From contig CAWJWO010000002.1 in NCBI GenBank assembly GCA_963846585.1, positions 263,592 through 327,591 of the forward strand: DNA of 64,000 nt. The letters run 5' to 3'. Source of the DNA: an uncultured Bacteroidota bacterium (GTDB lineage Bacteria > Bacteroidota > Bacteroidia > Bacteroidales > JAAUTT01). The notes beneath the pieces are model-generated. The model ran no database searches, had not been told where the DNA came from, and worked only from the letters and a program-made list of their open reading frames with translations. This document shows positions 13,996 to 61,712 of the stretch, one piece after another (positions within the stretch are counted from its first letter, which is position 1; the number at the start of each line of letters is the position of its first letter). Position numbers and translations under genes: made by a program.

Positions 13996-14341
13996 AAGGA
14001 AAGTAGGCAGAGAATGGAAGAAGGCAGAAGCAGTGGGACATGAAAAGACATGAAAAGACGTGAGACGTGAGACGTGAAAAGAAGACAGAAGGCAGAAGAC
14101 AGAAAAAAGATAAAAGATTTAAGGAAAAAGATTTGAGATTTTAGAATCTAGATTTTAGAATTGAGATTTATAAATATCAATCTGGTAAAATATATTAAAT
14201 CTTAAATCACCAATCGCAAATCTGGAATCTTAAATCAAAGAGTCTTGGCTCATGGTTCTTGGCTCTTGGCTCTGTTTTTACAACCAACAACTAAGCACTA
14301 AGCACTAAGCACTAAGCACTAAGCACTAAGCACTATATAAA
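13996..14341 (+). repeat. Composite mosaic repeat element, copy A (fills the MCCase-beta / hydratase spacer)
   Basis: Module order: purine-rich GGCAGAAG units, (GACGTGA)x3 at 14057-14077, GAAGACAGAAGGCAGAAGACAG, AGATTT/GAGATTT-rich core, agtcttggctcatggttcttggctcttggctctg at 14241-14274, caaccaacaa, then (CTAAGCA)x6 at 14291-14336, then ATG. Collinear with the reverse complement of 34108-34396. Confidence 0.85.
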
Positions 14342-15127
14342 ATGGACACATTCGAAACAATCAAAGTTGAATTAAACGAAAAAGTCGCTACCATTTACCT
14401 AAACAGGCCTGAAATACATAATGCATTTAATCATAAAATGGTACTTGAGATAATTTCTGCACTAAAGTCTGTTGCAGATAATCAAAAACTAAGAGTTTTG
14501 GTAATTCGTGGCAATGGAAAATCTTTTTGTTCCGGGGCTGACTTAAACTGGATGAAGGAAGTTGTTGAATTCGATTTTGAAAAAAATTACAATGAAAGTC
14601 TGTTATTAGCTAATTGTTTCCAAACGATTTATCATTTCCCTGTACCGGTAATTTCTTTTGGACATGGCTCAGTAATTGGTGGCGGTAATGGATTTCTGGC
14701 TACCTCAGACTTTGCAATATGTACTAAAAATACTCATTTTGCATTTACTGAAGTAAATATCGGGTTGGTGCCGGCTGTAATTTCCTATTTTATTATCAGG
14801 CGTATGGGAATAAATAAAACTAAAGAATTAATGCTCTCCGGACAACAATTCAATGGAATTGAAGCTGAACATTGGGGGCTTGTAAATTATGCGATTGACG
14901 AGTCTGATACTGAGAATTTTATAAAATCCACTATCCAAAGATTAATTGAAAAAAGTCCACAGGCGTTAAAAAGAACAAAAAATTTACTTAATAACAATGA
15001 TTTATTATTCGATGAAAATGCATTTTTAAAAGAATCGGCAATTATAATTTCTCAGGCACGTGTTTCAAAGGATGGGCAGGAAGGAATGCGATCATTTTTA
15101 GAAAAAAGACGGCCGGTATGGGATTAG
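14342..15127 (+). CDS. Enoyl-CoA hydratase/isomerase family protein (methylglutaconyl-CoA hydratase by context)
   Basis: 261-aa crotonase fold: IYLNRPEIHNAFN, GNGKSFCSGADLNWM, FGHGSVIGGGNGF, EGMRSFLEKRRPVW. Lies between the two MCCase subunit genes. Confidence 0.85.
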   Translation: MDTFETIKVELNEKVATIYLNRPEIHNAFNHKMVLEIISALKSVADNQKLRVLVIRGNGKSFCSGADLNWMKEVVEFDFEKNYNESLLLANCFQTIYHFPVPVISFGHGSVIGGGNGFLATSDFAICTKNTHFAFTEVNIGLVPAVISYFIIRRMGINKTKELMLSGQQFNGIEAEHWGLVNYAIDESDTENFIKSTIQRLIEKSPQALKRTKNLLNNNDLLFDENAFLKESAIIISQARVSKDGQEGMRSFLEKRRPVWD

Positions 15128-15179
15128 AATGAACTAATCAGGCAAAGTCTTGTTCAGATGATGCCTATAGTATCCCAAA

Positions 15180-17174
15180 ATGTTAAATTTTAGTAAAATA
15201 TTAATAGCAAACCGGGGAGAAATTGCACGGAGAATAATTCGTACAGCCCGCGAAATGGACTACAAATGTGCAGTTATTTATTCTTCCGGGGAAATAAATG
15301 CTGATTTTGTATCCGAAGCTGATGAAGCATACGATTTAGGTAATGGCAACATTCATGAAACTTACCTCAATATAACAAAAATAATTGACATTGCCCTCAG
15401 AAACGGGATTCAGGCAATTCATCCCGGTTATGGCTTTTTATCTGAAAATTATAAGTTTGCAAAAGCTTGCGAAGAAAATAACATTGTATTTATTGGGCCA
15501 ACAAGTGAAAATATAAAATTGATGAGCCAAAAAACTGCAGCCCGTGAATTTGTAAAATCACTGGGAATTCCACTTTTGGAGTCAGTTCAGGGAAACAGTC
15601 CGGAAGAATTATTGAAAAAGTCAGGGAAACTTAAATATCCTGTTATAGTAAAGGCAGATACCGGTGGTGGTGGCAAAGGCATGCAAATAGTTAAAAAACC
15701 TGAAGAACTATCAAAAATACTTGAAATTTCCCAACGGGAAGCTTTGGCATATTTTGGTGATTCAAATGTTTATCTGGAAGAATATCTTGAATATCCCCGA
15801 CACATAGAAGTTCAGATATTAGGTGATTGTTATGGCAATATTATTCATCTTTACGAAAGGGAATGTACAATTCAAAGGAGACACCAAAAAATTATTGAAG
15901 AAGCTCCTTCTCTTTGCCTGTCAGATAATTTAAGAAATAAACTGTTGGAGGCATCCTTGACTATTGCCCGGAAAATGAAGTATTTGAATGCCGGAACAAT
16001 TGAGTTTTTGGTTGATGAAAATCAGAATTTCTATTTCCTCGAAATGAATACCAGAATTCAGGTCGAACATCCGGTTACTGAAAAAATTACGGGAATAGAC
16101 CTGGTCAGGGAACAACTGAATATTGCTTCCGGAAACCGGCTTAATTTTAAACAGGAAGATATTTCGGTCAATGGCCATGCTATAGAAAGCCGTATATATG
16201 CTGAAAACCCTTTTAATGAATTTTTGCCTTCAGTGGGATCAGTAATAAAATATCAGGAACCAACAGGCAGGTCTGTAAGAATTGATTCTGCATTATCAGG
16301 CCCTGCCCTGATATCTTCGGATTTTGACCCAATGATTGCCAAGGTAATCTCAGGTGATTTGAACAGGGAAAGCGCCAGGCTTAACCTTATCAGGTTTCTG
16401 CAGCAATATATTATACATGGAATTGATACAAATATTCCATATCTGATTGAGATTTTAAATAATCCAGGATTTATACAAAACTCATATTCAACATCATTTT
16501 GTAAAGATTCCAAAAATATGCTTCAGGCTTCGTATATTAAAAAAATGCATGGATTATCTATAGAACTTATAACTGCCGCTTTCCTGATTTTTACTTTCCC
16601 GTTTTTAATAAATCATGTCAATACAAATGATAACAGGGTATGGAAAAGTTTAGGATATTGGAGAAATATAATGGTTACAGAAATAAATATATTGGATGTC
16701 AATTATAACATAACATTTAAAAAGCAAGGCACAGATAACTTTACATTTTGTATTAATGAAAAAGTCCCGTTACTGGTGAAAGGCCGGGAAAAGAACGGAA
16801 GGGTAGATTTTTTATTCTCCGGTCAAAGACATGTAGCTTTTATTTCATCTTTAAGTGATATTTATTATTTATCTATTAATGGAAATACATATACAATCCG
16901 GCGTAATGATATCACAAAAACAAAATTTGTAAAAGAAAGCGGCCTGAATTCATTTAACCAACAAAACAAGATATTGGCCACCATAAATGGCAAGATTATA
17001 AAAATGAATGTAAAAATGAATGAAAAAGTAAACAAAGGAGATATATTAATGGTTGTTGAATCAATGAAAATGGAAAACTACATTCTTGCTCCTAAAGGGG
17101 GAAAAATCACTAATATTTGTGTTAACACAGGTGACCTGGTAAAAGGCAGGGATGTGTTGGCCATTTTAACGTAA
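15180..17174 (+). CDS. Methylcrotonyl-CoA carboxylase alpha subunit (biotin carboxylase + BCCP domain)
   Basis: 664-aa ORF. Biotin carboxylase N-terminus KILIANRGEIARRIIRT, ATP-grasp GGGGKGM, EMNTRIQVEHPVTE, and a C-terminal biotinyl-lysine motif VESMKMEN. Confidence 0.9.
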   Translation: MLNFSKILIANRGEIARRIIRTAREMDYKCAVIYSSGEINADFVSEADEAYDLGNGNIHETYLNITKIIDIALRNGIQAIHPGYGFLSENYKFAKACEENNIVFIGPTSENIKLMSQKTAAREFVKSLGIPLLESVQGNSPEELLKKSGKLKYPVIVKADTGGGGKGMQIVKKPEELSKILEISQREALAYFGDSNVYLEEYLEYPRHIEVQILGDCYGNIIHLYERECTIQRRHQKIIEEAPSLCLSDNLRNKLLEASLTIARKMKYLNAGTIEFLVDENQNFYFLEMNTRIQVEHPVTEKITGIDLVREQLNIASGNRLNFKQEDISVNGHAIESRIYAENPFNEFLPSVGSVIKYQEPTGRSVRIDSALSGPALISSDFDPMIAKVISGDLNRESARLNLIRFLQQYIIHGIDTNIPYLIEILNNPGFIQNSYSTSFCKDSKNMLQASYIKKMHGLSIELITAAFLIFTFPFLINHVNTNDNRVWKSLGYWRNIMVTEINILDVNYNITFKKQGTDNFTFCINEKVPLLVKGREKNGRVDFLFSGQRHVAFISSLSDIYYLSINGNTYTIRRNDITKTKFVKESGLNSFNQQNKILATINGKIIKMNVKMNEKVNKGDILMVVESMKMENYILAPKGGKITNICVNTGDLVKGRDVLAILT

Positions 17175-17178
17175 AAAA

Positions 17179-60764: not shown

Positions 60765-61321
60765 AAATATACACCAAAACCGGTGATAAAGGCAAAACAT
60801 CACTAATAGGCGGTCAAAGAGTTTCTAAAAATCATATTCGTATTGAGGCATACGGAACAATTGACGAGTTAATGTCAAATATTGGTTTTGTGAGGGATAA
60901 TAATTTAAACCCTGAAATAAATATAATTCTCCTTGAAATCCTTGACAGGTTAATGAGTTGCGCTTCAATCCTGGCTACAGATGTTGAAAATATTAATATT
61001 AATATTCCCGAAATATTTCAATCAGATATCGAATTTCTTGAAAAAGAAATAGATAAAATGGATTCGGAACTTAATCCTTTAACTTCATTTATTCTTCCAA
61101 CCGGACATCCGTTGGTATCCGGTTGCCATATTGCAAGATGTGTTTGCCGTCGGGCAGAACGTATCATAATTATGGTTGCCGAAAATTTCTATGTGGCTGA
61201 TAATGTTATAAAATATATGAACCGTCTGAGTGATTACCTGTTTGTTCTTGCAAGAAAATTTACAAAAGATTTGAATGTAGAAGAAATTCCATGGCATCCC
61301 AGGTTGCAAATTCAAAAATAA
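60761..61321 (+). CDS. ATP:cob(I)alamin adenosyltransferase, PduO type
   Basis: [37 protein letters not shown] and [10 protein letters not shown]...[13 protein letters not shown]. The start overlaps the upstream stop (ATGA). Confidence 0.9.
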   Translation: [186 protein letters not shown]

Positions 61322-61381
61322 TTTATAATTTCAGGCAACAGTAATAATATATATCTTATTAAATATTAAATCGTTAGCCTT

Positions 61382-61603
61382 ATGTACTGGACTTTAGAAT
61401 TAGCCTCAAAGCTTGAAGATGCTCCCTGGCCTGCAACCAAGGAAGAATTAATTGATTTTGCAATAAGGTCTGGCGCACCGATGGAAGTTATTGAAAACCT
61501 TCAGGAAATAGAAGATGAAGGGGAAATATATGAGAGTATTGAAGATATTTGGCCCGATTATCCAAGCAAAGATGATTTCTTTTTTAATGAAGACGAATAC
61601 TAA
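61382..61603 (+). CDS. DUF2795-like small protein
   Basis: 73-aa ORF: APWPATKEELIDFAIRSGAPMEVIENLQEI with an acidic tail, matching my recollection of DUF2795. Confidence 0.65.
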   Translation: MYWTLELASKLEDAPWPATKEELIDFAIRSGAPMEVIENLQEIEDEGEIYESIEDIWPDYPSKDDFFFNEDEY

Positions 61604-61712
61604 TAGTGCTTAGTGCATAGTGCTTAGTGCATAGTGCTTAGTGTTTAGTAATTATTTTACAAACTGAAACCTGTAAATTATGACTAATTACTTACGACTT
61701 ACGACTTACTAC
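61604..61712. repeat. TAGTGCW array (61604-61648), AACCTGT-like remnant, (TTACGAC)x2 (61692-61705)
   Basis: tagtgcttagtgcatagtgcttagtgcatagtgcttagtgtttag starts right after the DUF2795 stop TAA. aaactgaaacctgtaaatt follows. ttacgacttacgac, flanked by degenerate units, abuts the stop of the minus-strand OstA-like gene. Confidence 0.9.

Follow-up and report, generated by a model that had tools for sequence, protein, structure and literature searches.

Polar heptamer arrays at gene boundaries in the intergenic spacers of an uncultured Bacteroidota bacterium

Introduction

Tandem heptamers with a fixed orientation to genes were described by Rehm et al. (2015, PLoS One 10:e0144275, PMC4692102) as GGGAATC and GGGGA(T/C)T repeats of Xanthomonas and Nostoc PCC 7120. 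The G-rich strand of these repeats was found in the sense orientation within 50 bp past stop codons, overlaps with the stop included, and in the antisense orientation within 50 bp before start codons. The repeats were over-represented in spacers, typically consisted of about 4 units, often formed inverted pairs and were mostly transcribed. Their units contain tracts of 3-4 G residues and form G-quadruplexes in vitro, to which the authors linked the preference for 4 units (PMC4692102). The present analysis concerns a 64,000-nt stretch of DNA from an uncultured Bacteroidota bacterium of the order Bacteroidales (GenBank assembly GCA_963846585.1, contig CAWJWO010000002.1, positions 263,592-327,591 of the forward strand; the whole stretch is referred to as the window), in which arrays of another heptamer, TAGTGCW (W is A or T), stand at gene boundaries.

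TAACTGA direct repeats were described by MacGregor (2015, Front Microbiol 6:1397, PMC4679880) in marine Beggiatoaceae, cyanobacteria and some Bacteroidetes. The arrays consist of 2-6 or more units and lie in one orientation a few nucleotides upstream of start codons, while in Flexibacter litoralis a reverse-orientation set was located just past a stop codon. In Bacteroidetes spacers the TAACTGA arrays are mixed with other heptamers, show 7-nt indels between strains and cause assembly breaks; binding of S1, Csp or CsrA was proposed (PMC4679880). Cyanobacterial short tandemly repeated repetitive (STRR) heptamers and long simple-sequence repeats (SSRs) with units of 5-11 nt were reported earlier (Mazel et al. 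1990; Mrazek et al. 2007). As summarized in PMC4692102 and PMC4679880, heptamers are the commonest long-SSR unit in prokaryotes and are concentrated in non-coding DNA, and polymerase slippage was proposed as their source. A 2022 preprint calls the role of heptamer repeats 'not very well worked out'. Translation initiation in Bacteroidetes is tuned by mRNA structure and needs unstructured initiation regions, and AUG is depleted near starts (Baez et al. 2019).

Results

Position and orientation of the TAGTGCW arrays

With Tandem Repeats Finder and a two-unit pattern search, exactly 12 TAGTGCW arrays were found in the window, at the coordinates given in a preliminary description of this DNA. The two-unit pattern was matched 39 times, compared with 0.04 matches expected from shuffles. 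The arrays have a period of 7 nt and consist of 2-9.4 copies joined head to tail, in register and without spacers; the copy number has no mode at 4. The unit is 43% GC, non-palindromic and contains isolated G residues only. The arrays were thus rightly separated from CRISPR, as no 23-50-nt repeats with unique spacers are present, and from the GC hairpins of the repetitive extragenic palindromic (REP) type. The arrays and the adjoining genes are the following:

14290-14336, minus strand: TAGTGCT, 6.6 copies (AGCACTA on the plus strand), antisense to the enoyl-CoA hydratase gene and ending 5 nt before its ATG (14342); the distal continuation consists of TAGTTGT/TGGTTGT units.
17177-17211, plus strand: five degenerate TAGTGCW units, starting 2 nt past the TAA (17172-17174) of the methylcrotonyl-CoA carboxylase alpha (MCC-alpha) gene.
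18550-18580, plus strand: alternating TAGTGCA/TAGTGCT, 4.4 copies, 4 nt past the TAG stop of the acyl-CoA dehydrogenase gene.
22802-22867, plus strand: TAGTGCW, 9.4 copies, degenerating towards the 3' end; its second TAG (22809-22811), in frame, is the stop of a 311-aa gene, and the array occupies the entire 48-nt spacer, reaching the next predicted GTG start (22860) in the forward orientation.
25019-25072, minus strand: TAGTGCA-rich, 7.7 copies; the first TAG (25069-25071) is the stop of a minus-strand GAF-domain gene.
28854-28947, plus strand: composite array of CAGTGCT TAGTGCA TAGTGCT and then TAGTTGT/TGGTTGT, 10.6 copies, which continue the 7-nt register; the array includes the ksgA stop (28875-28877).
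34115-34142, plus strand: TAGTGAT TAGTGCT TAGTTGT TAGTTGC (TAGTGCW part 34115-34131), antisense to folA, 7 nt upstream of its ATG (34107); a paralogue of the end of the 14290 array.
41078-41150, plus strand: TAGTGCW, 5 copies, followed directly by CAACTAR, 4.7 copies; the first TAG (41079-41081) is the parB stop, the CAACTAR block ends 6 nt before the DUF5683 gene start, and the 75-nt spacer is filled by a G-rich and then a C-rich block.
43401-43513, plus strand: TAGTGCW, 4.6 copies, starting 2 nt past the TAA of the SLT/LysM gene, then AAGGTTGTA, 5 copies, and the inverted partner TACAACYTT, 3.8 copies, before the next start.
55362-55394, plus strand: TAGTGCY, 4.7 copies, antisense to a 561-aa gene, 45 nt upstream of its ATG (55316).
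55489-55520, minus strand: TAGTGCW, 4.6 copies; the first TAG (55517-55519) is the stop of a 1024-aa TPR gene; inverted partner of the 55362-55394 array, with which it pairs in the predicted RNA fold.
61604-61649, plus strand: alternating TAGTGCT/TAGTGCA, 6.6 copies, directly past the TAA (61601-61603) of a 73-aa DUF2795 gene.

In gene sense, nine arrays start 0-4 nt past the stop codon or contain it, and the other three run antisense, their ends lying 5, 7 and 45 nt upstream of an ATG. The strict orientation claimed earlier was therefore found in 12/12 cases. The chance figure attached to it had to be revised: the 14290 and 34115 arrays lie in paralogous spacers, which leaves 11 independent cases (p ~0.001, post hoc). 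The 561-aa gene with its ATG at 55316, a putative 'beta-barrel' gene in the preliminary description, had no Pfam match.

The stop codon coincides with the first TAG of the array in the parB, GAF-domain and TPR genes. TAG is the stop in 6 of the 9 capped genes versus 8 of the 39 others (p=0.012). Units bearing TAG allow an array to adjoin or replace the native stop with the protein length unchanged. The A and T variants alternate in a perfect 14-nt periodicity in two of the arrays, whereas all three start-proximal arrays are of the T variant. The preliminary description had stated that three units close all six reading frames, and this applies only to the T variant; (TGCACTA)n leaves all three reverse frames open and includes an ATG. 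Stops in all six frames were rejected as a general cause of the polarity, as the A variant is open on the reverse strand and GGGAATC repeats are stop-free yet polar. An explanation by replication strand was rejected as well: TAGTGC occurs on both strands within the 64 kb (9 plus, 3 minus) and the gene-boundary rule holds in 12/12 cases.

The arrays are not assembly artefacts, a possibility raised in the preliminary description, since they were identical or differed by one unit in five independent ENA and Logan assemblies. Short-read contigs of this species break inside TAGTGCW arrays.

A common polarity rule for all array families

For a general test, every 6-10-nt tandem array in the window was read in the direction of the gene nearest to it. 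G exceeded C in 19 of 21 arrays located up to 50 nt past a stop, and C exceeded G in 15/15 located up to 50 nt before a start (Fisher p=2e-8). With TAGTGCW excluded, the corresponding values were 10/12 and 13/13 (p=2e-5). The rule can be stated as G>C when reading away from a gene end and C>G, with few G residues, when reading towards a gene start. Mathematically this gene-sense rule equals dyad symmetry, the G-rich strand having its 5' end at every gene boundary. The base composition was 18.9% G and 10.2% C in the 40 nt after stops, and 9.4% G and 13.7% C in the 40 nt before starts. Array orientation thus tracks a genome-wide compositional polarity of gene flanks.

Spacers longer than 100 nt are nearly all mosaics of 7-9-nt arrays. 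At least eight array families have inflated the spacers of this Bacteroidota lineage; besides TAGTGCW, they include TTAGTTG, ATAAACCTT, TACAACCTT/TACAACAT, ATTAAGTG, ACTTACG, AGACGTG, AGAAGAC, GAGATTT and TCTTGGC. Six families occur in both orientations, set by position. The orientation flips, as with TAGTGCW, in TTAGTTG, AGGTTTATA/ATAAACCTT, AAGGTTGTA/TACAACCTT, AGTGATTA/TCACTTAA and CGTAAGT/ACTTACG: AGGTTTATA follows stops and ATAAACCTT precedes starts, and AGTGATTA versus TCACTTAA and CGTAAGT versus ACTTACG behave alike. The view that TAGTGCW is special and has a rule of its own was accordingly not upheld. Units of TAGTGCW and of TAGTTGT occur together in single arrays in a common 7-nt register, therefore these two 'families' are variants of one.

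The 6-10-nt arrays cover 1870 of 6205 intergenic nucleotides (30%) and 181 of ~56,500 coding nucleotides (0.3%). The arrays are non-coding, polar and associated with gene boundaries, as was proposed initially. Stops are abutted at 0-5 nt. Apart from one array at a questionable TTG start call (4777-4810), the nearest approach to a start is 5 nt, a distance that leaves the A-rich stretch at -1 to -6 intact. The order of units is mirrored at stops and starts: TAGTGCW is gene-proximal and TAGTTGT is distal at both.

tRNA flanks and DNA beyond the window

The polarity rule extends to the flanks of tRNA genes. In ~8 kb of DNA of the same organism beyond the window, nine copies of CAACTAA terminate 4 nt upstream of a tRNA-Ser gene (L146, 14406-14819). 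In a metagenome-assembled genome (MAG) of another Bacteroidota bacterium (L092, 2682-2940), an array of TAGTGCT (4 copies) together with TTAGTTG arrays begins 8 nt downstream of a tRNA-Val gene; between these and the next gene lies a (CACACTC)n block free of G. Translational insulation had been listed among the possible roles; as a translation-specific explanation it was not supported, because tRNA genes are flanked likewise.

No TAGTGCW array was present in the ~15 kb beyond the window ends (L143 and L146, same organism). The sole array-rich spacer in those ~15 kb is the one ending at the tRNA, and it obeys the order of G-rich and then C-rich arrays. A mobile-element-rich stretch with IS21 IstB-like and Mu-transposase-like genes lies to the left of the window (L146, 17900-18560). 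It contains a direct duplication of ~330 bp (TGTCTGAACTGGGATTTGTGTGA...) and few heptamer arrays.

Variation between strains and absence in a relative

In strain L001, which is 99.8% identical to the window over 8 kb, the 14290 array is one unit (7 nt) shorter. The copy-number variation that was to be expected of a variable-number tandem repeat was hence observed, in a small sample. L001 also has several changes in the AGAAGAC block. A further length difference lies at 1774-1949. The 17177 array is identical in L001-L003. In this small sample, length differences between strains were confined to array-bearing spacers, save for 1 nt, not localised, in the spacer 11674-12387 of the near-identical strain L147. 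This 714-nt divergent spacer contains a run of ~11 C at about 12150-12165, possibly a phase-variable homopolymer.

The relative L115 has 62% amino acid identity in MCC-alpha, and its genes are in an unchanged order over 20 kb. Within these syntenic 20 kb, L115 was found to lack every TAGTGCW array, those at 17177 and 18550 included. Spacers of 41, 169 and 15 nt in L115 correspond to 225, 346 and 128 nt in the window, the 41-nt spacer being that of the 17177 array. At the GAF gene stop L115 has TAG+TTGCAG and the 15-nt spacer. Arrays make up 14% of the spacer DNA in L115 versus 30% in the window, and the units of L115 differ. The orthologous proteins of the window and L115 end at an equal residue position in all compared pairs except HMG-CoA reductase, so the arrays must have been gained at the native stop codon or have taken the place of the last 1-3 codons. 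The TAGTGCW arrays are recent, lineage-specific gains that evolve fast and by whole units, and are not conserved regulatory elements.

The mevalonate diphosphate decarboxylase gene is split into two open reading frames (ORFs) in L115 (16636-17725) and is intact in L116 (16636-17724). The split is due either to a frameshift or to an assembly error.

Predicted RNA properties and signal scans

The predicted folding energy of (UAGUGCU)6 was -15.5 kcal/mol and that of its reverse complement -2.5. For (UAGUGCA)6 the values were -18.4 and -10.1, respectively, and the latter reverse complement carries an AUG in every unit. The predicted pairing probability was 0.65 in the first 35 nt past stops versus 0.49 in the last 35 nt before starts, and it was higher after the stop in 16 of 19 co-directional spacers (p=5e-4).

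In 5 of the 14 array-bearing spacers a G-rich array was predicted to pair with a C-rich one into a long hairpin, with z values of -3.0 to -4.8. The minimum free energy (MFE) was -58.8 for the spacer 55308-55522 (z=-4.8), -77.4 for the thyA-folA spacer (z=-4.8) and -42.7 kcal/mol for the spacer 43397-43546 (z=-3.6); the other two are 47444-47704 (z=-4.2) and 49175-49476 (z=-3.0). Nine of the 14 spacers had no significant predicted structure relative to shuffled controls (z -2.5 to +0.9).

A scan of the whole window against Rfam gave no match at the gathering threshold. Canonical intrinsic terminators were not enriched in two 20-kb scans (11 and 9, compared with 11.7 expected in each). Sigma-70 promoter-like sites numbered 125 versus 92.5 expected (standard deviation 10.9) in one 20-kb scan and 88 versus 94.2 in the other. 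The Bacteroidetes-type promoter TTTG-N17-23-TAnnTTTG was matched 7 times versus 6.5 expected; at this chance level the arrays cannot be placed relative to promoters.

TAGTGCW arrays in other genomes

GTDB genomes gave over 110 exact four-unit TAGTGCW arrays, which are spread over many phyla and often lie beside one-mismatch variants or form inverted pairs. With crude gene calls, TAGTGCW at ~110 of these loci was in 43 cases sense and in 13 antisense within 50 nt of a stop, and in 8 cases sense and in 19 antisense within 50 nt of a start (stop versus start, Fisher p=7e-5). The other arrays at the same loci gave ratios of 26:10 near stops and 7:16 near starts. The bias is thus present across phyla and is not strict.

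In viral contigs, two scrambled heptamers of equal composition formed 9 and 6 four-unit arrays, compared with 9 for TAGTGCW. A special pan-bacterial TAGTGCW family was rejected on this ground, and because the scrambled heptamers are about as frequent, the breadth of TAGTGCW was read as convergence within a general heptamer phenomenon.

In the planctomycete MAG JAFZAL01 (Thermoguttaceae), at least eight loci (L024, L030, L032, L047, L049, L078, L079, L086) carry TAGTGCW inverted pairs around a short GC-rich core, e.g. GGCGCTTTGCGCC or GGACGCAAGCGC. They look like a dispersed hairpin element with heptamer-array arms.

Gene content, composite spacers and mobile elements of the window

The window has ~33% GC and ordinary housekeeping genes. 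It contains a leucine-catabolism cluster, mevalonate-pathway genes, ksgA, thyA-folA, parB followed by the DUF5683 gene, and a short sigma-70 gene. The nearest homologue of its MCC-alpha is only 62% identical. Together with the MAG names of related matches, this identity, the DUF5683 gene and the short sigma-70 gene narrow the taxonomy of the window to Bacteroidota. A look-up of the gene product at 61712-63385 gave no record. Further array-bearing features are listed below:

13996-14341, plus strand: composite spacer with, in this order, AGACGTG, AGAAGAC, the inverted pair GAGATTT/AAATCTN, TCTTGGC, CAACTAA and AGCACTA; the G-rich half precedes the C-rich half.
34108-34396, minus strand: composite spacer between thyA and folA, a paralogue of 13996-14341.
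26729-26762, minus strand: CAACTAA in gene sense, 4.9 copies, 10 nt upstream of the GAF gene start.
47569-47700, minus strand: array pair of TTAGTTG (47674-47700), abutting the stop of the htrA-like gene, and the inverted partner CAACTAG (47569-47598).

The two composite spacers of ~300 bp are ~80% identical and have an equal block order in gene sense. The array at 26729-26762 is an example of the TTAGTTG family that follows the common polarity rule. In gene sense, the array pair at 47569-47700 is followed by a canonical terminator hairpin (47536-47557); located between the stop codon and this terminator, the arrays are in the 3' untranslated region and would therefore be transcribed.

A 153-aa Y1 transposase gene of the IS200-like type lies at 53051-53512 (Pfam PF01797, E=3e-24). 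Inverted repeats of 46 nt, built of GC-rich hairpins, stand on either side of the gene (53000-53045 and 53556-53601, 91% complementary); the window has no other REP-like hairpins. The segment 53000-53601 is a unit of either the REP-associated tyrosine transposase (RAYT)/REP-like or the IS200 type. A GIY-YIG nuclease ORF (18849-19337) lies between 39-nt inverted repeats (18741-18779, 19411-19449) with an outer 26-nt pair. The whole unit of ~0.9 kb (18667-19517) is absent in the syntenic L115, where its flanking genes are 65 nt apart, and is probably a mobile insertion.

Discussion

The TAGTGCW arrays are heptanucleotide simple-sequence repeats, of the class that comprises STRRs, long SSRs and the GGGNATC and TAACTGA repeats. 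The explanation that we cautiously favour, and would place just on the probable side, is that heptamer repeats generated by slippage have inflated the spacers of this lineage and that a general polarity of gene flanks has filtered their orientation. The arrays would arise by replication slippage, and each would survive only in the orientation that fits the polarity of its flank. TAGTGCW, which is G/U-rich and predicted to self-pair as RNA, would be retained after stops. AGCACTA, in the T variant only, is predicted to be unstructured, lacks AUG, GUG and UUG, and would be retained before starts. The selective agent would probably be, on the one side, the need of Shine-Dalgarno-less Bacteroidota for unstructured leaders free of start codons and, on the other side, a preference for structured C-poor trailers that would be unfavourable to Rho and resistant to exonucleases.

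Several observations weigh against this explanation. The flanks of tRNA-Ser and tRNA-Val are polar too, which indicates that translation-based selection is not the whole story. TTAGTTG/CAACTAA has no predicted self-structure in either orientation, yet it is equally polar. There is no established force for C-depletion just past stops, the arguments from Rho and exonucleases being our inference. The mirrored order, with TAGTGCW proximal and TAGTTGT distal, hints at a single boundary-anchored process and not at two selective filters. Finally, independent slippage alone does not account for the recurrence of a single heptamer at 12 sites within 64 kb. As the tRNA cases, the TTAGTTG polarity and the mirrored order are left unexplained, a single dyad-symmetric mechanism is kept alive as an unlikely candidate. 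In one version, the arrays would surround each transcription unit, that of a tRNA gene as well, and possibly act, depending on their orientation, as transcription insulators or as pads for Rho loading; in another, an active mechanism of the lineage possibly seeds heptamer arrays and grows them outward from gene ends. If polarity did come from one boundary-anchored process, which we hold to be improbable, both the mirrored unit order and a density roughly five-fold higher than in any described genome would be explained.

Elements that act on transcription or RNA fate in a direction-dependent manner, by Rho loading or insulation, would be such a dyad-symmetric mechanism, and we doubt that the arrays are of this kind. 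The RNA read outward from a gene would be G-rich, structured and Rho-resistant, and the RNA read inward from either flank would present a C-rich, G-poor, unstructured, rut-like pad, so that termination would act on read-through and antisense transcripts that are not translated and would spare the translated sense mRNAs. Rho prefers RNA with C>G. The 5' end of the G-rich strand at every boundary, whatever the gene direction, the validity of the rule at tRNA genes and across phyla, the lack of enrichment of canonical intrinsic terminators in both 20-kb scans and the one spacer whose arrays, between stop and terminator, would be transcribed are in agreement with this. However, the C-rich arrays often measure only 25-45 nt, typical rut sites being longer, and the arrays are dispensable in the syntenic relative. 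It is equally doubtful that the arrays serve as arms of intercistronic hairpins, which could be terminators, REP-like stabilisers of mRNA or translational-coupling structures melted by the terminating ribosome. The five spacers that fold well below shuffled controls fit such a role, as do the inverted pairs formed by many TAGTGCW arrays in Thermoguttaceae and Acidobacteriota loci. The nine spacers without significant predicted structure do not, and most stop-proximal TAGTGCW arrays (17177, 18550, 22802, 61604) have no complementary partner in their own spacer. The start-proximal arrays are predicted to be mostly unpaired, and no U-tracts follow the arrays.

The strict 7-nt period, the 14-nt periodicity produced by A/T alternation in two arrays and the recurrence of TAGTGCW at 12 sites would suit a sequence-specific protein of the cold-shock/OB-fold, S1-like or RRM type with a footprint of ~7 nt per monomer. 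The arrays would then be landing pads in a post-transcriptional network similar to that proposed for TAACTGA repeats, for which S1, Csp or CsrA were named (MacGregor 2015, PMC4679880). This seems quite improbable, as at least eight unrelated units follow one rule and the determinant hence looks compositional rather than sequence-specific. Moreover, both orientations of each family are in use, the arrays are absent at the orthologous sites of the relative, the copy number drifts between strains, and in viral contigs scrambled heptamers make four-unit arrays about as often (9 and 6 versus 9). That a mobile or site-specific insertion process targets stops and gene boundaries and has left the arrays there as footprints or cargo has very little probability in our judgement. 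Several features speak for it: the arrays start right at the native stop codon or take its place with the protein length kept, the two 300-bp composite spacers are 80%-identical paralogues in matching gene-sense orientation, and the IS200-like Y1 transposase gene and the mobile GIY-YIG unit lie within the window. Against it, single arrays have no conserved flanks, terminal repeats or target duplications, nothing beyond the arrays being shared except in the two paralogous composite spacers. The 3' ends of the arrays decay gradually and strain differences are whole-unit indels. Y1 transposases mobilise hairpin elements and not heptamer arrays.

The abundance and polarity of heptamers in bacterial spacers have been without explanation since at least 2007-2015. 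The observation that many unrelated units obey the rule makes a unit-specific binding protein unlikely, and translation alone cannot be the cause of the polarity. In practice, short-read assemblies break at the arrays, and gene calling at 3' ends is affected because the arrays provide or displace stop codons.

Comparison with known repeat systems

A literature search for the exact TAGTGCW unit strings found no paper, and to this extent the repeat is undescribed, as it was first presented; polar intergenic heptamers as such have been published (PMC4692102, PMC4679880). REPs are transcribed, GC-rich imperfect palindromes of roughly 35 nt, and RAYT transposases mobilise them. Like enterobacterial REPs and bacterial interspersed mosaic elements (BIMEs), the TAGTGCW arrays are abundant extragenic repeats just past stops or between cistrons, and they too may form RNA structure; unlike these, they are head-to-tail heptamers. 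The units of STRRs and long SSRs differ from those of the window, and the summaries of these repeats in PMC4692102 and PMC4679880 do not mention gene-relative polarity.

The AGCACTA and CAACTAA arrays resemble the TAACTGA repeats in ending 5-45 nt before starts, and the CAACTAA/CAACTGA arrays of the window are near-relatives of TAACTGA with equal placement. No TAACTGA dimer was found in the window at up to 2 mismatches. MacGregor (2015) emphasised start-proximal sets and a specific RNA-binding regulator, and the stop-capping orientation was not reported there as a rule.

The closest system is that of Rehm et al. (2015, PMC4692102), where the polarity rule itself was already published; the class is known and its mechanism is unexplained. 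Both systems consist of tandem heptamers that are concentrated in spacers and follow an identical polarity rule. TAGTGCW differs in having no G-tract and no preference for four units, and the units of Rehm et al. carry no stop codon. An increased local genomic stability between species was reported for the latter, whereas the TAGTGCW arrays are absent in the relative. Their density is ~190 arrays per Mb here versus roughly 35-40 per Mb in Xanthomonas. What is added to the described systems is a unit that forms no G-quadruplex and has equal polarity, which implies that G-quadruplex formation is not required for the rule, together with the far higher density and the use of many unrelated units in both orientations under one G/C rule, the flanks of tRNA genes included.

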